From a virus (lineage: Duplodnaviria > Heunggongvirae > Uroviricota > Caudoviricetes), in the IMG/VR virus record IMGVR_UViG_2585427740_000001: 23,852 bases of DNA. One strand, written 5' to 3'. The notes below the pieces were generated by a model. That model was not told where the DNA came from and did no database searches. It worked only from the letters and a program-made list of their open reading frames with translations. The translations under genes and the position numbers were made by a program. Every line of letters begins with the position of its first letter. Within the stretch, counting starts at the first letter, position 1. Shown piece after piece: positions 1 to 23,852 of the stretch.

Positions 1-1284
1 TTACTTCTTCGCCTCTGCAACCACTTTACTACCCACGCCGCGGTTATTGTATTCCCACATGCGGTTGTAGTTAGTGTCATTCAGATTGCGCTGTATTTCG
101 TCGTTATCATCTACGCTGCCGGTATTACCCGCAAACGGACGATTAGAGATCACCGCATCGGCCCACGGTTTAGCCGTGTTAAAACCTTCGTTGATGGCGC
201 TATCACGGATCACCACCTGACCGTTGGTATTGGCATCAACATCCAGCGAGCGGCCCAGTTGCGCCACACCATCACCGAAAGCATTGAAACGGCTGTTTAC
301 GGCGAGGAAACCGTAGTAAATGTTGGACAGCGTAGCCGGTGCAAACACATACGCTTCTTGCTGAGTACGTGAGTTCACCACGCGGAATTCGGTGTTATCG
401 AACACCACTGCGCCGCGACCAGAAACGATATCCACATCCCCTTCAATGTAGCTGTTGGTCACCAGCGTACGCGGCTGACGATTTGTTTCCAGACGGTTCT
501 GCACACCGCTGTTGGTGACAAAGAAGGTGTTCTGACGACCGAGAATGTTAACGTTGTTAATCTGTACCTGGTCACCATCAGTACGCAGTGCCACCGCCGG
601 ATGGTTACCTGCATCTACGCTATCGCCCAGCGTGTTTTCGATGGTCAGATTTTGCAGTTGCAGGCCATTGTTTTGTGACCAGAAGACCGCAGAGCAGAGA
701 ACACCGATACTGTCGCTGCGTTTGCTCTGGCAGCTATCGTACATATACCACGCTGGTTTACCTGGCATATATTTGCCGCGCGGGTTGACGTCGTGACGCC
801 AGTCGGCAGGGCTCATGCCACCATCAAGGGAAAGCCCAATCTTCACATCAATCGGTTTTTCACCTGTACCGTACAGAGTAATTCCACCCGGAGCGGCAGG
901 GACATATACCGTTCCCTGATACTCACCAGGCATCACGGCAATATACTGGCGCTTGTTGGTACGCTTGATAATTGCCGCATCTACCGCCGCCTGAATCGTG
1001 GTATGCGTTACACCTTGAGTGCCCGCCGGGCCGACAACAAAGTCAGGTTGCGCAGGCAGGGTAATCGGGGAAGGATTCCACGCTGCAGCACCTGGTGTCA
1101 GGGATGCAAAATAGTGTTGAGCATCGAAATTCTGCGCTTCTTTTGCCGACAGAATCGGGCGAGAAGAGGTACCAGGCGCGGTTTGATCAGAAGGACGTTG
1201 ATCGGGCGGGGTTGAGCTACAGGCGGTCAGCGTCACGCCAAAAGCCAATGCCAGCGCCAGACGGGAAACTGAAAATGTGTTCAC
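1..1284 (-). CDS. ybhC: YbhC-like outer-membrane lipoprotein (pectinesterase / acyl-CoA thioesterase family); chromosomal flank of the lambda attachment site
   Basis: 427-aa ORF complete in window (stop at 1-3). N-terminal signal peptide with lipobox LTAC. Sequence recalled as E. coli YbhC, which borders attB-lambda. Confidence 0.88.
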   Translation of the reverse strand: MNTFSVSRLALALAFGVTLTACSSTPPDQRPSDQTAPGTSSRPILSAKEAQNFDAQHYFASLTPGAAAWNPSPITLPAQPDFVVGPAGTQGVTHTTIQAAVDAAIIKRTNKRQYIAVMPGEYQGTVYVPAAPGGITLYGTGEKPIDVKIGLSLDGGMSPADWRHDVNPRGKYMPGKPAWYMYDSCQSKRSDSIGVLCSAVFWSQNNGLQLQNLTIENTLGDSVDAGNHPAVALRTDGDQVQINNVNILGRQNTFFVTNSGVQNRLETNRQPRTLVTNSYIEGDVDIVSGRGAVVFDNTEFRVVNSRTQQEAYVFAPATLSNIYYGFLAVNSRFNAFGDGVAQLGRSLDVDANTNGQVVIRDSAINEGFNTAKPWADAVISNRPFAGNTGSVDDNDEIQRNLNDTNYNRMWEYNNRGVGSKVVAEAKK

Positions 1285-1330
1285 AGGTTGCTCCGGGCTA
1301 TGAAATAGAAAAATGAATCCGTTGAAGCCT

Positions 1331-1418
1331 GCTTTTTTATACTAAGTTGGCATTATAAAAAAGCATTGCTTATCAATTTGTTGCAACGAACAGGTCACTA
1401 TCAGTCAAAATAAAATCA
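1331..1418. other. attL: lambda-type attL: 15-bp common core GCTTTTTTATACTAA (1331-1345) followed by the P' arm with arm-type Int sites, running up to the int stop codon
   Basis: Exact lambda att core read directly in the sequence. The downstream AT-rich arm (GTTGGCATTATAAAAAAGCATTGCTTATCAATTTGTTGCAACGAACAGGTCACTATCAGTCAAAATAAAATCATTATTTG) matches the recalled attP P' arm. The bacterial side is contiguous with the ybhC 3' flank. Confidence 0.9.
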
Positions 1419-2489
1419 TTATTTGATTTCAATTTTGTCCCACTCCCTGCCTCTGTCATCACGATACTGTGATGCCATGGTGTCCGACTTATGCCCGAGA
1501 AGATGTTGAGCAAATTTATCGCTTATCTGCTTCTCATAGAGTCTTGCAGACAAACTGCGCAACTCGTGAAAGGTTGGCGGATCCCCTTCGAAGGAGAGAC
1601 CTGATGCTTTTCGTGCGCGCATAAAATACCTTGATACTGTGCCGGATGAAAGCGGTTCACGACGAGTAGATGCAATTATGGTTTCTCCGCCAAGAATCTT
1701 TTTGCATTTATCAAGTGTTTCCTTCATTGATATCCCGAGAGCATCAACATGCAATGTTGTTGGGATGGCAATTTTTACGCCTGTTTTGCTTTGCTCGACA
1801 TAAAGATATCCATCTACGATATCAGACCACTTCATTTCGCATAAATCACCAACTCGCTGCCCGGTAACAACAGCCAGTTCCATTGCAAGTCTAAGCCAAC
1901 ATGGTGATGATTCTGCTGCTTGATAAATTTTCAGGTATTCGTCAGCCGTAAGTCTTGATCTCCTTACCTCTGATTTTGCAGCGCGAGTGGCTGCGACCGG
2001 GTTTGTTGTTATATGGCCTTCAGCCATAGCCTCTCGGAATGCATCGCTCAGTGTTGATCTGATTAACTTGGCTGATGCCGCCTTTCCCTCGTCTATGTAT
2101 CCATTGAGCATTGCCGCAATTTCTTTTGTGGTGATGTCTTCAAGTGGAGCATCAGGCAGACCCCTCCTTATTGCTTTAATTTTGCTCATGTAATTTATGA
2201 GTGTCTTCTGCTTGATTCCTCTGCTGGCCAGGATTTTTTCGTAGCGATCAAGCCATGAATGTAACGTAACGGAATTATCACTGTTGATTCTCGCTGTCAG
2301 AGGCTTGTGTTTGTGTCCTGAAAATAACTCAATGTTGGCCTGTATAGCTTCAGTGATTGCGATTCGCCTGTCTCGGCCTAATCCAAACTCTTTACCCGTC
2401 CTTGGGTCCCTGTAGCAGTAATATCCATTGTTTCTTATATAAAGGTTAGGGGGTAAATCCCGGCGCTCATGACTTCGCCTTCTTCCCAT
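1419..2489 (-). CDS. int: Phage lambda integrase (tyrosine recombinase)
   Basis: 356-aa ORF whose translation (MGRRRSHERRDLPPNLYIRNNGYY...) matches lambda Int as recalled. Sits adjacent to attL P' arm and overlaps xis. Confidence 0.97.
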   Translation of the reverse strand: MGRRRSHERRDLPPNLYIRNNGYYCYRDPRTGKEFGLGRDRRIAITEAIQANIELFSGHKHKPLTARINSDNSVTLHSWLDRYEKILASRGIKQKTLINYMSKIKAIRRGLPDAPLEDITTKEIAAMLNGYIDEGKAASAKLIRSTLSDAFREAMAEGHITTNPVAATRAAKSEVRRSRLTADEYLKIYQAAESSPCWLRLAMELAVVTGQRVGDLCEMKWSDIVDGYLYVEQSKTGVKIAIPTTLHVDALGISMKETLDKCKKILGGETIIASTRREPLSSGTVSRYFMRARKASGLSFEGDPPTFHELRSLSARLYEKQISDKFAQHLLGHKSDTMASQYRDDRGREWDKIEIK

Positions 2490-2685
2490 TTCTGATCCTC
2501 TTCAAAAGGCTACCTGTTACTGGTCGATTTAAGTCAACCTTTACCGCTGATTCGTGGAACAGATATTCTCTTCCATCCTTAACCGGAGGAGGGAATATCC
2601 TGCATTCGCGCACCCATCGACGAACTGTTTCAAGGCTTCTTGGGCGTCGCTGGCGAGCGTTCCACTCCTGAAGTGTCAAGTACAT
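2467..2685 (-). CDS. xis: Excisionase Xis
   Basis: 72-aa ORF (MYLTLQEWNARQRRPRSLETVRRWVRE...) matching lambda Xis as recalled. 23-nt overlap with int start, as in lambda. Confidence 0.95.
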   Translation of the reverse strand: MYLTLQEWNARQRRPRSLETVRRWVRECRIFPPPVKDGREYLFHESAVKVDLNRPVTGSLLKRIRNGKKAKS

Positions 2686-2724
2686 CGCAAAGTCTCCGCA
2701 ATTACACGCAAGAAAAAACCGCCA

Positions 2725-2892
2725 TCAGGCGGCTTGGTGTTCTTTCAGTTCTTCAATTCGAATATTGGTTATGTCTGCATGTGCTATCTGCGCCCATATC
2801 ATCCAGTGGTCATAGCAGTCATTGATGTTCTCTGCTTCGATAACTCTGTTGAATGGTTCTCCATTCCATTCACCTGTGACTCGGAAGTGCAT
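2725..2892 (-). CDS. Small hypothetical protein (55 aa) directly upstream of xis
   Basis: ATG at 2892 preceded by GGAG 8 nt upstream. Below the 60-aa ORF-track cutoff; found by hand translation (MHFRVTGEWNGEPFNRVIEAENINDCYDHWMIWAQIAHADITNIRIEELKEHQAA). Confidence 0.45.
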   Translation of the reverse strand: MHFRVTGEWNGEPFNRVIEAENINDCYDHWMIWAQIAHADITNIRIEELKEHQAA

Positions 2893-2974
2893 TTATCATC
2901 TCCATAAAACAAAACTCGCCGTAGCGAGTTCAGATATAATTTCCACCAAAGGCAGTAGTTGCTGATGCTAAGAA

Positions 2975-4063: not shown

Positions 4064-4679
4064 TTATCTAAAAGTCTTTCCACTTTTAACGTCTAGGTAT
4101 ATTCTGTTCGACAACGTCATTCCTCCGCAATATGTGAAATAGATGTTTTTCCCCTTATTGCTTGATGCCATCCACCCTCCGATTTCCTTAAAGTCGCTTT
4201 CCGTGCAGACCCCTTCGTTTATTAACTTCCTAGCTGCCGAAGAAAACTCTTTTTTGTATATACGGTAGTCATCAGATCCTTTGATTAAAGTATCATCTCC
4301 GCTCGCATTTTCAGCAGGATCTGATGGCCTTTCACTGCTAAGATCACTAAGTTTAACCCATTCTGAAAACTTGCCATTGACGATTCCGTTTTTTCTTGTG
4401 CAGGATTTATTACCTTCTTTAATATATTCGCTTTCCCCTCCCACACATGAGGCTGAATATGGCTCAGTTATACGAACCCATTCACCTTTTTTTTTCTAGA
4501 AAATCTACGCCTTCCCTGAAAAATAGTTTCCCAGCCACTCCACATTTACTTGAAGGGCAGGTATGTCTTTCCGTTCGATCAACAACAACCCAAAGTCTTG
4601 ATTCATTTTTTGCCATTGCCGATGGTATTTGAGATGAGACAATTAACGTAAGCCCTAAAATTAGTATTGATTTTTTCAT
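4064..4679 (-). pseudogene. Secreted protein gene (about 205 aa if intact) split by a frameshift inside an A9 homopolymer tract
   Basis: Upstream ORF (4482-4679) starts with a signal peptide (MKKSILILGLTLIVSSQIPSAMA) and has a good RBS. It ends at TGA just after nine consecutive A (plus-strand T9 at 4487-4495). The downstream ORF (4064-4444) continues open in the other frame through the tract; removing one A fuses them. Confidence 0.65.
4487..4495. repeat. Homopolymer tract (T9 on plus strand, A9 in the coding strand) at the frameshift point of the 4064-4679 gene
   Basis: Counted directly in the sequence. Confidence 0.9.
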
Positions 4680-5447: not shown

Positions 5448-5545
5448 CTTTCATTAATCCCTGAATTGTTGGTTAATACGCTTGAGGGTGAATGCGAATA
5501 ATAAAAAAGGAGCCTGTAGCTCCCTGATGATTTTGCTTTTCATGT

Positions 5546-6180: not shown

Positions 6181-6861
6181 TCATCGCCATTGCTCCCCAA
6201 ATACAAAACCAATTTCAGCCAGTGCCTCGTCCATTTTTTCGATGAACACCGGCACCATCTCGTCAAAACTCGCCATGTACTTTTCATCCCGCTCAACCAC
6301 GACATAATGCAGTCCTTCACGCTTCATACGCGGGTCATAGTTGGCAAAGTACCAGGCATCTTTTCGTGTCACCCACATGCTGTACTGCACCTGGGCCATG
6401 TAAGCCGACTTTATGGCCTCGAAACCACCGAGCCGGAACTTCATGAAATCCCGGGAGGTAAACGGGCATTTCAGCTCAAGGCCATTGCCGTCACTGCATA
6501 AACCATCGGGAGAGCAGGCGGTGCGCATACTTTCGTCGCGATAGATGATCGGGGATTCAGTAACATTCACGCCGGAAGTGAATTCAAACAGGGTTCTGGC
6601 GTCGTTCTCGTACTGTTTTCCCCATGCCAGCGCCTTAGCATTAACTTCCGGAGCCACACCGGTGCAAACCTCAGCCAGCAGGGTGTGGAAGTAGGACATT
6701 TTCATGTCAGGCCACTTCTTTCCTGAGCGGGGCTTGGCTATCACGTTGTGAACTTCTGAAGCGGTGATGACGCCGAGCCGTAATTTGTGCCATGCATCAT
6801 CCCCCTGTTCGACAGCTCTCACGTCGATCCCGGTACGCTGCAGGATAATGTCCGGTGTCAT
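6181..6861 (-). CDS. exo: Lambda exonuclease (Red-alpha)
   Basis: 226-aa translation ([30 protein letters not shown]...) matches lambda Exo as recalled. Confidence 0.97.
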
Positions 6862-7306
6862 GCTGCCACCTTCTGCTCAGTGGCTTTCTGTTTCAGGAAT
6901 CCAAGAGCTTTCACTGCTTCGGCCTGTGTCAGTTCTGACGATGCGCGAATGTCGCGGCGAAATATCTGGGAACAGAGCGGCAATAAGTCGTCATCCCATG
7001 TTTTGTCCAGGGCAATCAGCAGAGTGTTAATCTCCTGCATGGTTTCATCGTTAACCGGAGTAATGTCGCGTTCCGGCTGACGTTCTGCGGTGTATGCGGT
7101 ATTTTCGACAATGCGCTCGGCTTCATCCTTGTCATAGATACCAGCAAATCCGAAGGCCAGACGGGCACACTGAATCATGGCTTTATGCCGTAACATCCGT
7201 TTGGGATGCGACTGCCACGGCCCCGTAATTTCTCTGCCTTCGCGGGTTTTGAATGGTTCGCGGCGGCATTCATCCATCCATTCGGTAACGCAGATCGGAT
7301 GATTAC
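6858..7306 (-). pseudogene. bet: bet (Red-beta), 5'-truncated: only the C-terminal ~145 codons remain
   Basis: Translation from ...NHPICVTEWMDECRREPFKTREGREITGPWQSHPKRMLRH... to the C-terminus matches lambda Bet as recalled. The N-terminal ~115 codons are absent and the frame runs into ren-derived sequence on the opposite strand. Confidence 0.88.
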
Positions 7307-7426
7307 CGGTTCGCTACCAGGGAAGAACGGGAAGGAAAGGTGAGCACGAATCTGATTTTCAAGGAGTGTCGCCAGAGTGCCGCGATGAAGCGGGTGTTGG
7401 CATTTTATCGCGGCAATTTTCAATAG
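7304..7426 (+). pseudogene. ren: ren 3' fragment (last ~40 codons: YRFATREEREGKVSTNLIFKECRQSAAMKRVLAFYRGNFQ*)
   Basis: Plus-strand frame matches the recalled C-terminus of lambda Ren (...YYRFATREEREGKMSTNLVFKECRQSAAMKRVLAVYGVKR). It begins abruptly at the bet breakpoint. Confidence 0.7.
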
Positions 7427-7463: not shown

Positions 7464-7655
7464 CTAATTATTGGACGAAATTGGTTTTTGCTTTGGTTTA
7501 GTTAGCCTAGCAATCAAGCCAGAGGCAATAATGATGATCCAAGCAATTTGATGCAATGCTACTCCAATATAAGAACCTTTATAGATAATAAAGGCATAGA
7601 TCGCTAGAAACGAAATAAATATCCATAACGAAAGTTGATAAATTTTGGCGCGCAT
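7464..7655 (-). CDS. Possible small two-helix membrane protein (63 aa) in AT-rich insert
   Basis: ORF with two hydrophobic stretches; no convincing RBS; AT-rich DNA can yield spurious ORFs. Confidence 0.3.
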   Translation of the reverse strand: MRAKIYQLSLWIFISFLAIYAFIIYKGSYIGVALHQIAWIIIIASGLIARLTKPKQKPISSNN

Positions 7656-11173: not shown

Positions 11174-12256
11174 TTAGAACTGGTAAACCATACCTACAGC
11201 AACGATATCATCGGTAGCAACGCCAGATGCTTTCGTGAAATCGCTCTTATCAATCAGGTTGATTTTGTAATCAACAAAAGTGGACATATTTTTGTTGAAG
11301 TAATAGGTTGCACCTACATCAATATATTCAACCAGGTCCTGATCACCCCACGCACCCAAGTCTTTTCCTTTAGATTGCAGGTAAGCAACGGACGGACGCA
11401 GACCGAAGTCGAACTGATATTGTGCAACTACTTCGAAGTTTTGTGCTTTGTTGGCAATATGGTTATTACCAAAAACAGTCATGTTCTGGGTTTCAGAATA
11501 GGTGGTAGCCAGATAGATGTTGTTCGCATCATATTTCAGACCAGCTGCCCATACTTCAGCATTTTGACCAGATGCATTCAGGCTGTTGTTACCGTAGATA
11601 ACCTGATTATTAGTGCGGTCAGATTTAGCATAGGTTGCACCTACACCGAATCCTTCATACTCATAAGTAGTGGAGAAACCGAAACCATCACCATTAGCTT
11701 CAGTTACGTCAGTGCGGTCATTTTTACCCTGATACTGAGCAGCAAAGTTCAGACCATCAACCAGACCAAAGAAGTCATTGTTACGATAAGTTGCAACACC
11801 TGTGGTGCGACCAGTCATGAATACATCTGTTTGGGTCCAGGTATCGCCACCGAATTCTGGCAGAACGTCGGTCCATGCACCAATATCGTATGCTACACCG
11901 TAGTTACGGCCATAATCGATGGAGCCGTAGTCACCGAATTTCAGGCCAGCGAAGGCAAGACGGGTTTTATCTTTGGAGGAACCTTGAGATTCAGCGCGGT
12001 TGCCTTTGAATTCATATTCCCACTGACCGAAACCAGTCAGTTGATCGTTGATTTGGGTTTCACCTTTGAAGCCAAGACGGGCATAAGTAGTATCACCATC
12101 ATCTGCATCATTAGAGGAGAAGTAGTGCTTAGCATTAACTTTCCCGTACAGATCCAGCTTGTTACTGTCTTTATTATAAATTTCAGCTGCCTGAGCAGAC
12201 ATCGCCATCAGTACTGATGCAGCTACAGCAGAAATTGCCACTGTTAATTTTTTCAT
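11174..12256 (-). CDS. nmpC: General porin of the OmpC/OmpF/NmpC(Lc) family
   Basis: 360 aa from [23 protein letters not shown] (signal peptide) to the C-terminal ...VGMVYQF. Resembles NmpC/Lc as recalled. The ORF-track ORF extends 20 codons further upstream, judged spurious. Confidence 0.92.
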
Positions 12257-12682
12257 CGTGAGCCCTTTTTTTGAACTATTATTAAAAAATGATGTCACTG
12301 CGCGATAAATATTCATCTAATCAATGTGATTATTTCAAGATGTAAGTTTTGGTTTCTCATTTGATTTGTGAAGTAGATCTCTATTTTTATCTGAACTTTT
12401 TCTATCGAATCCTATTCATGGCTCTTGGCTGAATAAAAATAAATCTATTAGCCAATTTATATTAATGGCTGTTATTTATAAGTGCTCTATAATTTGAAGA
12501 TTCAATTTAAACCAGCTAAAAATAACGCTGGAAATTATTTGTTGGTTATTTGTTGAGATTTGCTTATGTATTTGTAGTGGTGTTTTCAATACTCGGTAGC
12601 ATTCTCGCAAATATCATTTAGTGGTTTACGTACGTAAAAAATTGGTTATGCTGTTAAGAGTGGTTACTTCGTCACACAGCTT

Positions 12683-14045: not shown

Positions 14046-14339
14046 TTATTGTGAGCAATACACACGCGCTTCCAGCGGAGTATAAATGCCTAAAGTAATA
14101 AAACCGAGCAATCCATTTACGAATGTTTGCTGGGTTTCTGTTTTAACAACATTTTCTGCGCCGCCACAAATTTTGGCTGCATCGACAGTTTTCTTCTGCC
14201 CAATTCCAGAAACGAAGAAATGATGGGTGATGGTTTCCTTTGGTGCTACTGCTGCCGGTTTGTTTTGAACAGTAAACGTCTGTTGAGCACATCCTGTAAT
14301 AAGCAGGGCCAGCGCAGTAGCGAGTAGCATTTTTTTCAT
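14046..14339 (-). CDS. bor: Bor lipoprotein (serum-resistance-associated)
   Basis: 97-aa translation MKKMLLATALALLITGCAQQTFTVQNKPAAVAPKETITHHFFVSGIGQKK... matches lambda Bor as recalled. Confidence 0.92.
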   Translation of the reverse strand: MKKMLLATALALLITGCAQQTFTVQNKPAAVAPKETITHHFFVSGIGQKKTVDAAKICGGAENVVKTETQQTFVNGLLGFITLGIYTPLEARVYCSQ

Positions 14340-16059: not shown

Positions 16060-16279
16060 CGGGTCCTTTCCGGCGATCCGACAGGTTACGGGGCGGCGAC
16101 CTCGCGGGTTTTCGCTATTTATGAAAATTTTCCGGTTTAAGGCGTTTCCGTTCTTCTTCGTCATAACTTAATGTTTTTATTTAAAATACCCTCTGAAAAG
16201 AAAGGAAGCGACAGGTGCTGAAAGCGAGCTTTTTGGCCTCTGTCGTTTCCTTTCTCTGTTTTTGTCCGTGGAATGAACA
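16060..16279. other. cos: cos site: cosN with 12-nt cohesive end GGGCGGCGACCT at 16091-16102, followed by cosB (terminase small-subunit binding region) up to the nu1 start
   Basis: Sequence ...CGACAGGTTACG GGGCGGCGACCT CGCGGGTTTTCGCTATTTATGAAAATTTTCCGGTTTAAGGCG... matches the recalled lambda genome ends joined at cos. Confidence 0.88.
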
Positions 16280-16795
16280 ATGGAAGTCAACAAAAAGCAG
16301 CTGGCTGACATTTTCGGTGCGAGTATCCGTACCATTCAGAACTGGCAGGAACAGGGAATGCCCGTTCTGCGAGGCGGTGGCAAGGGTAATGAGGTGCTTT
16401 ATGACTCTGCCGCCGTCATAAAATGGTATGCCGAAAGGGATGCTGAAATTGAGAACGAAAAGCTGCGCCGGGAGGTTGAAGAACTGCGGCAGGCCAGCGA
16501 GGCAGATCTCCAGCCAGGGACTATTGAGTACGAACGCCATCGACTTACGCGTGCGCAGGCCGACGCACAGGAACTGAAGAATGCCAGAGACTCCGCTGAA
16601 GTGGTGGAAACCGCATTCTGTACTTTCGTGTTGTCGCGGATCGCAGGTGAAATTGCCAGTATTCTCGACGGGATCCCCCTGTCGGTGCAGCGGCGTTTTC
16701 CGGAACTGGAAAACCGACATGTTGATTTCCTGAAACGGGATATCATCAAAGCCATGAACAAAGCAGCCGCGCTGGATGAACTGATACCGTTATGA
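16280..16795 (+). CDS. nu1: Terminase small subunit Nu1, C-terminally altered (171 aa; the last ~10 residues of lambda Nu1 are replaced by a single L and a stop)
   Basis: Translation MEVNKKQLADIFGASIRTIQNWQEQGMPVLRGGGKGNEVLYDSAAVIKWYAERD... matches lambda Nu1 through ...AALDELIP, then diverges at about 16789. Confidence 0.9.
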   Translation: MEVNKKQLADIFGASIRTIQNWQEQGMPVLRGGGKGNEVLYDSAAVIKWYAERDAEIENEKLRREVEELRQASEADLQPGTIEYERHRLTRAQADAQELKNARDSAEVVETAFCTFVLSRIAGEIASILDGIPLSVQRRFPELENRHVDFLKRDIIKAMNKAAALDELIPL

Positions 16796-20250: not shown

Positions 20251-20831
20251 TGGCATTCAGAATGAGTGAACAACCACGGACCATAAAAATTTATAATCTG
20301 CTGGCCGGAACTAATGAATTTATTGGTGAAGGTGATGCATATATTCCGCCTCATACAGGTCTGCCAGCAAACAGTACCGATATTGCACCGCCAGATATTC
20401 CGGCTGGCTTCGTGGCTGTTTTCAACAGTGATGAGTCATCGTGGCATCTTGTTGAAGACCATCGGGGTAAAACAGTTTATGACGTGGCATCAGGGGACGC
20501 GTTATTTATTTCTGAACTCGGCTCATTACCGGAAAATGTTACCTGGTTATCCCCGGAAGGGGAGTTTCAGAAGTGGAACGGCACAGCCTGGGTGAAGGAT
20601 ACGGAAGCAGAAAAACTGTTCCGGATCCGGGAGGTGGAAGAAACAAAAAACAGCCTGATGCAGGTAGCCAGTGAGCATATAGCGCCGCTTCAGGATGCTG
20701 TGGATCTGGAGATCGCAACGGAGGAAGAAACCTTGTTGCTGGAAGCCTGGAAAAAGTATCGGGTATTGCTGAACCGTGTTGATACGTCAACTGCACAGGA
20801 TATTGAATGGCCAGTAGCACCTATAGGGTAA
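20250..20831 (+). CDS. tfa: Tail fibre assembly chaperone Tfa
   Basis: 193-aa translation [51 protein letters not shown]... matches lambda Tfa as recalled. ATG overlaps the stf stop. Confidence 0.95.
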
Positions 20832-21689
20832 ATTCGTAATGATTACCTAAATACGTTATTCTTTTGTTCAAAAAGTGATTTTGCTATAGATAGGGAGTAT
20901 GTTCTTGGATTAAGAATAAAAATCGCCATGAAAGAGCTTCATGGCGAGTACATAAACGTACAAAATGTGATGAAAGTAGAGTGGCGTAAGCCACTATATT
21001 AAGATGTGACAATAGCGAAGAAAAGTAAATAACATTTTATGGACGTTTAATTGTTAATTATAAAAACTAGAGTGCCCGATATTGTTTACCTTGCTTTAAA
21101 ATAATGTACTCAAACCAAATTTTTGAGCTAAAAGCTCAAATAATATAAATGCAATAATAATGTTTAATAAGACAATTAGCTTGCTTTGTATTTTCATTTC
21201 GGAATACTGTTAAGTAACTTTGATGACCCTAACAATAGATCGGAATTTTCTTAGAGTCAATGGTCACTGTTTTTGCTTGCAAAGCAAATGTTTTGGTGGT
21301 TATAAGTTGTCTTAATATAGTCACGCATGCAACTTGTTCCATGCGGAGATTAAAGATTGGAATATAACGCTAAGATGGAATTAAATTACATTTGCAATAA
21401 TCAATTTATTATTACTCAATAATTACCGATATTATTATTGTAAATTAATCATTAGAGTGCAAAAAGAAATGTAACGGCAAAATAAGAGGACGATAGCTGA
21501 GAAAAAAGCGTGCTTTCCCAATCTGGGGCAAATCACGTCTGAATGACACCTGAAAACAGGTGGTAGCCTCAAGAAGGCTTGGAATATTCTTCTTTAATGT
21601 TATGTAATTCATTGATTTTTCGTGTACGATTTAAAGACATTTATTCCAAGAAAAATTTTTAACTCTTTGATTTTTCGACTCTGTATCAT

Positions 21690-21751
21690 CGGTCTCGAAA
21701 ACCGGAGTAGGGGCAACTCTACCGGGGGTTCAAATCCCCCTCTCTCCGCCA
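21690..21751 (+). other. 3' fragment (~62 nt) of tRNA-Ser(CGA): anticodon stem-loop, variable arm, T-arm and acceptor 3' end with CCA; 5' half absent
   Basis: CGGTCTCGAAAACCGGAGTAGGGGCAACTCTACCGGGGGTTCAAATCCCCCTCTCTCCGCCA matches the recalled 3' portion of E. coli serU-type tRNA-Ser. The preceding sequence cannot form the acceptor/D arms. Confidence 0.75.
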
Positions 21752-22335
21752 CTTTATCAATGACTTATCTCCCGACTTCCCGCCTTGCTTTTCCTAAACA
21801 GAACAATCGTAGAATATTCTTGAAGGGTTAGATCGTCACTGTTTTCTGTTCGATACTGTGACATTCAGCACTTGATTCGCTATGGATCTGACAGGAAGGT
21901 TTTGAGCGAAAATTTGCAGTTATTCAGTCGTTTTCTTATCGGTCACCATTATTCTTTTAGACATTGATCCTACAAAGCTGCCGCAAAGTTGGTGGTGGGA
22001 ACTGAAGTTGCGTAGAGAAGGGGTCAATACCCGGAGGCAAACATGGGCTGGCAAAAGTGTAGCGGTATTAGGCGCAGCTATTTAGCCTAGTTATGTTTTA
22101 TGAAAACTTGATATCATATAAGTGTCTTACTTATTGGCTGTAAATAAGTTTTTCCTAAGGAATTGTTTCTTGAGTATCATTTGTAACTGTAACGGAATTT
22201 ATAATCCTTTGCTTTATTGTTACGGTATTTTTTATCACACCCTATTTTTTATGTGGTTTTTTATACTGAAGTTTGGCAAAGTGAACTTTATATGCATATA
22301 CTTCATCCTGGTTTCAGTTAAGTTGGGTGGATGAT

Positions 22336-23079
22336 ATGGCAACTACATGTTCAGTTATATTGATTTTGGAGTCCTTTGATGTTTATTTCGGAAAAGAGAG
22401 TGTGTTTCTGGAGAGAGGTTCATCTGTACTTGTCGACTCTAGCTCTAGAGATTTTTTCCTGACATATCCTGAAAGAGTGATAGTGGCGGATTTTGGCGCT
22501 GAGTTTATTAGTCGCTATTTGAAAGCTAATAACTTAAGGGATATTTCTGATTGTAGGGAATATCCATCTTATTTAAAAATAAACTTTGCTGACTTCAGTT
22601 TAATTAAAGGATTAATTAGTTGGGCTAATCACTGTGCTGAATACATAGAAATTTTTGATGAGTCTATTGCTTTTACATGTCTCTCTGCATTTTCTTCTGA
22701 AAAACAATTTGGAGTATTTCTGTTTGAATGTTTGAAAAGCACAGGGGCTAAAGTTAAAACGATTATTCATACGGATTTATCTGCACCATGGCGTCTTAAG
22801 GATATATCATCAAGATTATATCTCAGCGAAAGTTTACTAAAGAGGAAATTGAAAGAAGAGGGGGTATCATTCAGTAAGATCATACTTGATGAGAGGATGC
22901 AAATGGCTGAATATTTACTCAGCACTCGTTGTTATCCTATTAGTAAAGTAGCTAAGGTCTGTGGTTATGCCAGTGTCTCATACTTTACTTATGTATTTAG
23001 ACGTTATTTTGGTGTTTCTCCAAGTCAATACTCTCAGAGCAGTTCAGAAAGTAAAATTCTTACTCACCAGGGAATCTGA
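22336..23079 (+). CDS. AraC/XylS-family transcriptional regulator (AppY/EnvY-like), about 247 aa
   Basis: C-terminal AraC-type HTH signature (...WRLKDISSRLYLSESLLKRKLKEEGVSFSKIILDERMQMAEYLL...KVCGYASVSYFTYVFRRYFGVSPSQY). Low-GC gene; in-frame GTG 3 codons upstream is the ORF-track start. Confidence 0.85.
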   Translation: MATTCSVILILESFDVYFGKESVFLERGSSVLVDSSSRDFFLTYPERVIVADFGAEFISRYLKANNLRDISDCREYPSYLKINFADFSLIKGLISWANHCAEYIEIFDESIAFTCLSAFSSEKQFGVFLFECLKSTGAKVKTIIHTDLSAPWRLKDISSRLYLSESLLKRKLKEEGVSFSKIILDERMQMAEYLLSTRCYPISKVAKVCGYASVSYFTYVFRRYFGVSPSQYSQSSSESKILTHQGI

Positions 23080-23590
23080 TCATTGTTCTTGCCCCCTTAT
23101 TTCCAGACAGGGGGTGTATCTTAAGTTAACGTTACCCGCTGACGTCGATATTCTCGCGGAGAGCGATAACCCAACGCACTGTGCGGATGGTTTTCATTGT
23201 AATGTTCGATCGCCACTGCAAGATTATGCAATGCCGTTCTTACATTCGGTTTCGGCATGAACGCGATGTAGTCTTCCTTCATCGTTTTCACGAACCTTTC
23301 TGCCATTCCATTACTCTGAGGACTGCTGATTGCCGTTGTGCAGGGCTCCAGATTCAACTCTCTGGCGAACTGCCATGTTTCATGCGCTCTATACGCTGAA
23401 CCGTTATCTGTCAGCCACTGGATGGACTGTTCCGGTACTTTATCGCCAAAGCGTTTTTCTATCGCTCCTAACATGACATCCTGCACTGTCGCTTTATCGT
23501 AACCTCCCGTGCTTGCGGCCCAGTCTATGGCTTCACGATCGCAACAGTCCAGGGCGAACGTAACACGCAGTTTTGAATCGCCACGGGTTT
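23077..23590 (-). mobile_element. IS2-like (IS3 family) element fragment: terminal region plus 3' part of the transposase orfB
   Basis: Terminal sequence TTGCCCCCTTATTTCCAGACA resembles the recalled IS2 end. The orfB C-terminal translation matches IS2 InsD as recalled (...TVQDVMLGA...WLTDNGS.Y...[12 protein letters not shown]). Confidence 0.7.
23121..23585 (-). pseudogene. IS2-like transposase orfB, C-terminal ~155 codons only (5' part removed)
   Basis: ORF-track ORF 23121-23486 continues open upstream to a TAA at about 23586 (…[34 protein letters not shown]…). No orfA or N-terminal orfB upstream on this strand. Confidence 0.75.
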
Positions 23591-23630
23591 AACAGACACC
23601 TCAGAGTCATTTAAGATGGCTTAAAGAGAG

Positions 23631-23852
23631 GTGCCCATGAGCGGTAAGCGTTATCCCGAAGAGTTTAAAACTGAAGCAGTCAAACAGGTTGTTGATCGCG
23701 GTTATTCTGTTGCCAGCGTTGCAACACGTCTCGATATCACCACCCACAGCCTTTATGCCTGGATAAAGAAGTACGGTCCGGATTACTCCACTTTTTCATC
23801 AAGCCAATCCGCCCACCACTGCATCATTTCTCTGCGCTTATCGAGATACTGA
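23631..23852 (+). CDS. IS3-family transposase OrfA-like HTH protein (N-terminal part typical; C-terminus atypical, possibly disrupted)
   Basis: MSGKRYPEEFKTEAVKQVVDRGYSVASVATRLDITTHSLYAWIKKYGPD resembles IS3-family OrfA HTH domains. RBS AGAGAGGTGCCC-ATG. Opposite orientation to the IS2-like orfB fragment. Confidence 0.6.
   Translation: MPMSGKRYPEEFKTEAVKQVVDRGYSVASVATRLDITTHSLYAWIKKYGPDYSTFSSSQSAHHCIISLRLSRY

Follow-up and report, generated by a model that had tools for sequence, protein, structure and literature searches.

Can a lambdoid prophage that has kept its attachment sites, integrase and excisionase still leave the chromosome after many of its other phage functions have been deleted? 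The question arises from a 23,852-nucleotide stretch of DNA (hereafter, the window), near the left end of which the initial annotation saw an intact attL, int and xis on an otherwise crippled prophage and supposed that the element could still excise if attR was intact farther downstream.

Chromosomal location of the prophage

The window is a piece of Escherichia coli chromosome that matches strain PEC1009 over its full length, with six substitutions and one 1-bp indel; none of these seven positions falls within 1–2936. The gene order in PEC1009 is ybhJ, ybhC, prophage, ybhB and bioA, which is that of the classical lambda attachment site. The window begins inside ybhC and stops about 225 bp before the right prophage end, as measured on the closest genomes. 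The prophage is about 22.8 kb in length and is integrated at the classical lambda attB, in the ybhC/ybhB interval. Comparisons with the phage mEp332 were made through annotation, junction searches and a small alignment.

1–1284, minus strand: ybhC, the host gene left of the lambda attachment site (open reading frame 1–1284; annotated as ybhC in the near-identical PEC1009)

Compared with PEC1009 and other relatives, the window has one T more in a T run at position 4487, and a 204-aa gene (phrog_8310, unknown function) is split there into ORFs of 126 and 65 aa.

Attachment sites

1329–1425, no strand assigned: attL (exact core match; 1331–1514 equal to lambda 27724–27907; C', H' and P'1 fit the consensus)
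within attL: B core half-site CTGCTTT; 15-bp common core, 1331–1345; 7-bp overlap TTTATAC, 1336–1342
within attL: C' core site, 1341–1349; IHF site H', 1371–1383; arm-type sites P'1–P'3, about 1391–1422

The names of these sites, and the extents given for P'2 and P'3, follow lambda attP. The 15-bp lambda core, GCTTTTTTATACTAA, is found at 1331–1345 as an exact match, whereas 0.10 matches per window would be expected by chance even with up to two mismatches to the core. The 184 bases at 1331–1514 are the same, base for base, as lambda 27724–27907, so that the P' arm is unchanged, and there are only 27 differences from lambda over 1470 bases. Judged from these alignments, the resemblance of the att-int-xis region to lambda is evidently one of homology and not of chance. 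The parts of a lambda attL (B-O-P') are all present, namely the B half-site, the TTTATAC overlap, C', H' and P'1–P'3, with ybhC directly to the left. The exact core and the unchanged arm bear out the earlier view that the att core and P' arm are intact.

The initial annotation had asked for a second att site downstream of the window, and the nearest genomes have such a site about 225 bp beyond the end of the window, adjoining ybhB. In PEC1009, the core ACTTTTTTATACTAA (37076–37090 of the PEC1009 record, L001) is followed by CTTGAGCGAAACGGG and then ybhB. We infer the attR of the window element from these near-identical relatives. Strand exchange needs identity in the 7-bp overlap, and the overlap of attR, TTTATAC, is identical to that of attL. 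The attR core carries A for G at its first position, which changes the C core site to CAACTTT from the CAGCTTT of lambda. This variant is native to the attP type, as the mEp332 record ends with ...TTCAACT at the core. An exact 15-mer search, in which no second copy is found, would miss this site because of the A.

The P arm of attR is 85.8% identical to that of lambda and 98–99% identical to those of mEp332 and PhiR70_1. Its differences from lambda miss the binding consensus, and P1 is unchanged. H1 and H2 fit WATCAANNNNTTR, CAGTCACTAT is retained in P2, X1 matches exactly, X2 departs only at its first base, and C matches; the names P1, H1, P2, X1, X2 and H2 again follow lambda attP. A lambda attR (P-O-B'), in which excision requires P2, X1, X2, F and H2 besides an identical overlap, is represented in PEC1009 by the overlap, H1, P2, X1, X2, H2, C and the host B' flank. 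When the left half of attL is joined to the right half of attR, the resulting site occurs contiguously at 100% identity in other genomes.

22255–22269, plus strand: core-like sequence GGTTTTTTATACTGA with two mismatches (motif search; not a prophage boundary)

This core-like site was considered as attR and rejected, as the b region of mEp332 contains the same 24-mer and the true junction adjoins ybhB. The stretch 22255–22278, GGTTTTTTATACTGAAGTTTGGCA, resembles the core and the beginning of the P' arm, with an exact overlap, two mismatches in the 15-mer and, when two indels are permitted, similarity beyond it. The stretch precedes an AraC-family regulator gene by about 50 nt, is also present in mEp332, and could be a chance resemblance or an old att relic.

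Integrase and excisionase

1419–2489, minus strand: int, lambda-type tyrosine integrase, 356 aa (ORF, lambda alignment, Pfam, structure alignment)
2467–2685, minus strand: xis, excisionase, 72 aa, with a 23-nt overlap with int as in lambda (ORF, alignment, PF07825)

Int differs from lambda Int by five substitutions (I155M, H164P, A245T, I248V and E264K). It aligns over residues 1–356 with the lambda Int structures PDB 5j0n and 1z1g, and its Pfam domains are full length (PF09003, residues 1–69; SAM-like/central, 81–171; PF00589, 179–345). The protein is accordingly predicted to be a heterobivalent tyrosine integrase of the lambda type in which the arm-DNA-binding, core-binding and catalytic domains are all full length. 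The six catalytic residues, R212, K235, H308, R311, H333 and the nucleophile Y342, are kept as in lambda. The description of Int as full length with its catalytic C-terminus present was therefore correct, and the inactivating catalytic substitutions that were named as possible evidence against it were looked for on the alignment, where none of these residues is changed.

Xis differs from lambda Xis by G59S and is identical to mEp332 Xis. It gives a full-length match to PF07825 (residues 1–72, E = 3.9e-41), which places it in the Exc family, and it corresponds to RefSeq WP_001303849.1, the same protein as in E. coli B REL606. The 72-aa gene product is thus intact, as had been proposed. The phage mEp332 has been kept as an MG1655 lysogen, and its lysates form plaques (PMC3442831). 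As Int is one residue apart from, and Xis the same as, the proteins of this plaque-forming phage, this variant of the module would be expected to support both integration and excision.

Deletion junctions and surviving genes

6858–7304, minus strand: bet', Bet/RecT annealing protein reduced to its C-terminal half and bounded upstream by a junction (phrog_252 positions 132–263 of 263; annotated without the N-terminus)
7305–7426, plus strand: ren', the 3' end of ren (junction search, alignment with mEp332 bet and ren)
16091–16795, plus strand: lambda cos (cosN GGGCGGCGACCT, 16091–16102, with cosB) and nu1' (nohD, 171 aa) (motif, annotation, junction search)
20832–23852, plus strand: right-hand b region with an AraC-family regulator (22327–23079) and IS fragments, reaching attR about 225 bp beyond the window

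In the alignment with mEp332, the sequence switches from bet to ren at about 7302–7305, after GATGATT, with about 3 nt of microhomology. Judged against the lambdoid gene order of mEp332, the genes and sites missing between bet and ren are gam, kil, cIII, N, pL, cI, cro, cII, O and P. In a tblastn search of the window with approximate query sequences for lambda N, cI, cro and cII, no match was found (all E values above 0.09). The second junction, at about 16784, joins a slightly shortened nu1 to the 3' part of lom, and terminase A through J are lost. Neither the bet'/ren' nor the nu1'/lom' junction is spanned by any deposited phage record. The exo-xis region, the nin genes, Q, a porin gene, the lysis genes, bor, cos with most of nu1, the side tail fibre gene with tfa, and the b region survive.

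Compared with its complete relatives, the element is a defective (cryptic) prophage that has lost immunity, replication and virion structural genes. The two junctions agree with the earlier description of the prophage as crippled, with the qualification that cos, most of nu1, Q, the lysis genes, the side tail fibre gene and tfa remain. A lambda-type terminase could in principle still cut at the cos of the remnant, in which a lambda-like cosB stretch is present.

Several other features of the interior were observed. The porin gene (11174–12316, annotated ompC, nmpC-like) is flanked by Q and the lysis genes, an arrangement shared with mEp332 and DLP12, and bor lies at about 14046–14339; porin and bor are typical lysogenic-conversion cargo that has been retained. 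In the b region, mEp332 has the same gene order and the same distance of roughly 1000 bp between the end of the regulator gene and the core. We read 21690–21755 as the 3' two-thirds of a tRNA-Ser (serU-like) gene, ending with ...CTCTCTCCGCCA. The fragment is also found in the viable phage mEp332 (L007, 43831–43878) and may be a relic of the attachment site of another element. ARAGORN found no tRNA in the window, and Rfam gave only a sub-threshold antisense match to a plastid element at this spot. The only Rfam match at the gathering threshold was IS009 (20593–20791, 218 bits against a gathering threshold of 117), a full-length match to this small RNA family that lies within the 3' end of the tail fibre assembly gene.

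Routes to expression of xis

2698–2711, minus strand: pI CII-binding box, TTGCGTGTAATTGC, 12 nt upstream of the xis ATG (no difference from lambda within 2657–2771)
2716–2735, minus strand: terminator-like hairpin that has a T run and directly precedes pI and xis (8-pair stem, five GC pairs; same in lambda)
2912–2931, minus strand: second terminator-like hairpin, upstream of a 55-aa ORF at 2725–2892 (hairpin scan)

The sequence TTGCGTGTAATTGC at 2698–2711 is taken as the pI box, and the hairpin at 2716–2735 is presumably a lambda tL terminator. The more specific name tL3 was considered for this hairpin and dropped, as the published mentions of tL3 are given without coordinates. Two further intrinsic terminator-like hairpins lie on the xis strand, at 5525–5507 and 6120–6098.

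In lambda, the sole source of Xis is pL transcription carried past terminators by N, and pI requires CII and gives a transcript that provides Int without Xis (PMC2951348, PMC5300877). The bet'/ren' junction removes both pL and N, as the initial annotation had recognized, and the block that would make a lambdoid prophage inducible and excision-competent, pL with N antitermination under repressor control, has gone with it. In that annotation, expression of int and xis was then left to pI or to read-through. Only the box itself stands: the CII-binding sequence of pI is intact, but pI cannot drive excision because CII is deleted and the pI transcript yields Int, not Xis. Read-through into xis would meet two to four terminator-like hairpins, the farther pair only where transcription began beyond them, with the N antiterminator absent. 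The module is single-copy in PEC1009, and therefore this strain has no resident lambda-int helper. Xis is presumably made in essentially no amount, and the element would not excise by itself; some Xis could, however, come from leaky termination or from a weak leftward promoter that has escaped recognition.

The last possibility leads to the alternative closest to the earlier reading, that the element does excise on its own, rarely but genuinely, with Xis and Int supplied by read-through or by an unrecognised promoter in the exo-xis region. All the cis sites and both genes are intact, other cryptic prophages of E. coli, such as rac, are still excision-proficient (PMC4632033), and a few consensus-like leftward promoter matches lie upstream, those near the bet'/ren' junction being at 7466–7439, 7749–7721 and 7802–7774. 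Such matches are, however, not commoner than chance, as 12 were found on the xis strand against 13.5 expected in shuffled sequence. Any transcript that started upstream would have to cross two to four terminator-like hairpins before xis, and pL, N and cII are deleted; pI is a source of Int only (PMC2951348). The element has moreover been kept with identical ends in at least 23 genomes, and the prophage and its flanks diverge equally. We consider autonomous excision unlikely on these grounds. The earlier statement that the element could still excise holds for the structural substrate, which is intact, and probably not for autonomous mobility; it is best read as describing a competent substrate for Int and Xis given in trans.

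The M155 allele of Int

The one residue by which Int differs from mEp332 Int, its nearest counterpart of proven function, is I155M. The codon for residue 155 lies at about 2025 of the window, and positions 1955–1957 (around codon 178) are unaffected. No phage record is 100% identical to Int, the best reaching 99.7%, and none of the 271 phage records that match carries M155. Of 80 IMG/VR loci, 10 have M155, all on predicted prophage contigs, nine of 9.6–21 kb and one of 93 kb. In the data seen, the substitution is limited to the defective-prophage lineage.

This distribution raises the possibility that the prophage is grounded by a defect of the protein, recombination being impaired by the I155M change in the core-binding domain so that the element's own Int is useless; the allele's absence from phage records, and the fact that nine of the ten contigs carrying it are no longer than 21 kb, would fit such a defect. 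The replacement of Ile with Met is, however, conservative, and our reading of the SAM-like domain consensus is that the position is variable and hydrophobic. The catalytic residues, from which residue 155 lies apart, and the known specificity residues are unchanged, and the Int of a helper phage would bypass the defect in any case. A defect in Int seems to us very unlikely to be what holds the element in place.

Distribution and decay among E. coli genomes

The ybhC-attL-int-xis segment was found at ≥80% coverage in 1947 of 5426 genomes (at 100% identity in 27), and the attR segment in 1920 (at 100% identity in 23). The reconstructed empty attB was found at the same coverage in 3488 of the 5426. 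About 36% of complete E. coli genomes, E. coli B included, carry the module at attB.

The bet'/ren' junction is common to 19 genomes, and a ren'/exo junction occurs in a further six; the left arm shows three different deletions among the relatives. On the structural-gene side, a remaining part of terminase A is joined to a truncated tail-fibre gene in A14 and NCTC9087, 23CRST047 represents a third form, a nu1/tail-fibre fusion in which only part of nu1 is kept, and NCTC9040 has lost nu1 altogether and gained IS1 copies. As the window form and the A14 form are not derivable from each other, the immunity and replication genes were deleted first and the structural genes lost several times independently. 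The structural-gene block was lost in relatives (L088–L091) by at least four different deletions, in addition to IS1 insertions.

Four relatives were compared with PEC1009. Their 12-kb flanks differ by 0–0.43 mismatches per kb and their prophages by 0.15–0.50, and this equally small divergence indicates vertical inheritance; horizontal spread of the remnant was considered, and the comparison of flanks with prophage in these four relatives gave no sign of it. Across 27 genomes, int and xis show no substitutions in 1.6 kb against a background of about 0.2 per kb, numbers too few for a selection test. At about 0.2 substitutions per kb, only about 0.3 changes would be expected in int and xis, and their intactness therefore needs no selective explanation. 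With an SNP divergence of about 0.2 per kb, decay by deletion is, as far as the aligned genomes indicate, far faster than decay by point mutation.

A selective explanation would be that att-int-xis and cos are maintained because the remnant hitch-hikes on lambda-type helpers, being excised in trans and packaged via its own cos. The survival of attL, attR, int, xis, cos and most of nu1 agrees with this, as do the ends, which are untouched while the interior has several independent deletions, and the length of 22.8 kb, about half a lambda genome, which suggests that a dimer would fit a lambda head. Yet there are no replication genes to supply concatemers, the flanks and the prophage share the same tiny divergence as under vertical descent, NCTC9040 is without nu1 and 23CRST047 has only part of it, and the ends amount to about 6% of the element, so that a handful of deletions sparing them is unremarkable. 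That such selection has preserved the module is extremely improbable. Scarcely more credible is the view of the remnant as not inert but a helper-dependent hitch-hiker, packaged for example as a dimer of about 45 kb; if it were true, the hitch-hiking would spread cargo (the porin, Bor, the AraC-family regulator and the tail-fibre genes) between strains.

Model and comparison with known systems

The element is very probably a deletion derivative, at attB, of an mEp332-like lambdoid phage, with a recombination module that is intact and transcriptionally orphaned, so that it stays put when alone and is a competent passive substrate. With the pL/N route to Xis deleted and pI deprived of its activator CII, the element would remain integrated on its own. 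Int and Xis from a superinfecting or co-resident phage of the lambda-att family would recombine attL with attR across TTTATAC, and excision would restore a normal attB; the released circle could not replicate and would be lost. The sequences, the junctions, the attR of relatives and the genome counts are direct observations; we infer both the expression state of the module and its response to a helper phage, and excision by a lambda-type helper is plausible. Such excision would correspond to the classical curing of prophages by heteroimmune superinfection. That the module is intact is best explained by a prophage that is young on the point-mutation clock and is decaying by deletion and IS insertion, selection on it not being demonstrable.

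The lambda module (J02459, 27.5–29.1 kb) is alike in having 98.2% nucleotide identity over att-int-xis, an identical core and P' arm, the int/xis overlap, the pI CII box, the upstream hairpin and the ybhC/ybhB insertion site. Unlike lambda, the window element has five Int substitutions and one Xis substitution, the CAACTTT C site and a P arm of 85.8% identity, and it is without pL, N and cII. Closer relatives are mEp332 (PV340541) and PhiR70_1, with 99.5% identity over att-int-xis and P arms of 98–99% identity; the Xis of mEp332 is identical, and mEp332 shares the b region, the AraC-family regulator, an IS fragment, the tRNA-Ser fragment and the core-like 24-mer. In contrast, mEp332 is a complete phage of 46.2 kb that has gam through P as well as the head and tail genes, whereas the window element lacks both of these blocks and has M155 in Int.

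E. coli B (REL606, BL21) carries a 12.1-kb defective lambda-B prophage at attB (PMC4395058). The REL606 prophage resembles the window element in its attL, full-length int, identical Xis and attR, with 99.2% identity to window 1–2936 and two residue differences in Int. It differs in an unrelated interior, a P arm of the lambda type and another chromosomal haplotype (seven mismatches per kb in the right flank). DLP12, Rac and Qin of E. coli K-12 are likewise lambdoid remnants decayed by deletion, and the nin, Q, lysis and nohD genes of the window carry DLP12 gene names in annotation. These three have other integrases and attachment sites, and their excision has been measured experimentally. Cryptic prophages with working excision modules, rac among them, are documented (PMC4632033), and grounded prophages are a documented idea as well (PMC6379469); the remnant is another instance of an already known situation.

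Implications

The finding matters little beyond correct annotation. An intact int, xis and att set on a remnant does not by itself amount to mobility, as the limiting factor in lambda is the regulatory route to Xis. With a lambda-int prophage at attB in about 36% of complete E. coli genomes, the situation is a common one. In strains of this lineage attB is occupied, and lambda-based integration tools would be expected to target attL or attR or to form tandem insertions. Infection by a phage of the lambda family could cure such strains of the remnant or otherwise cause its loss.
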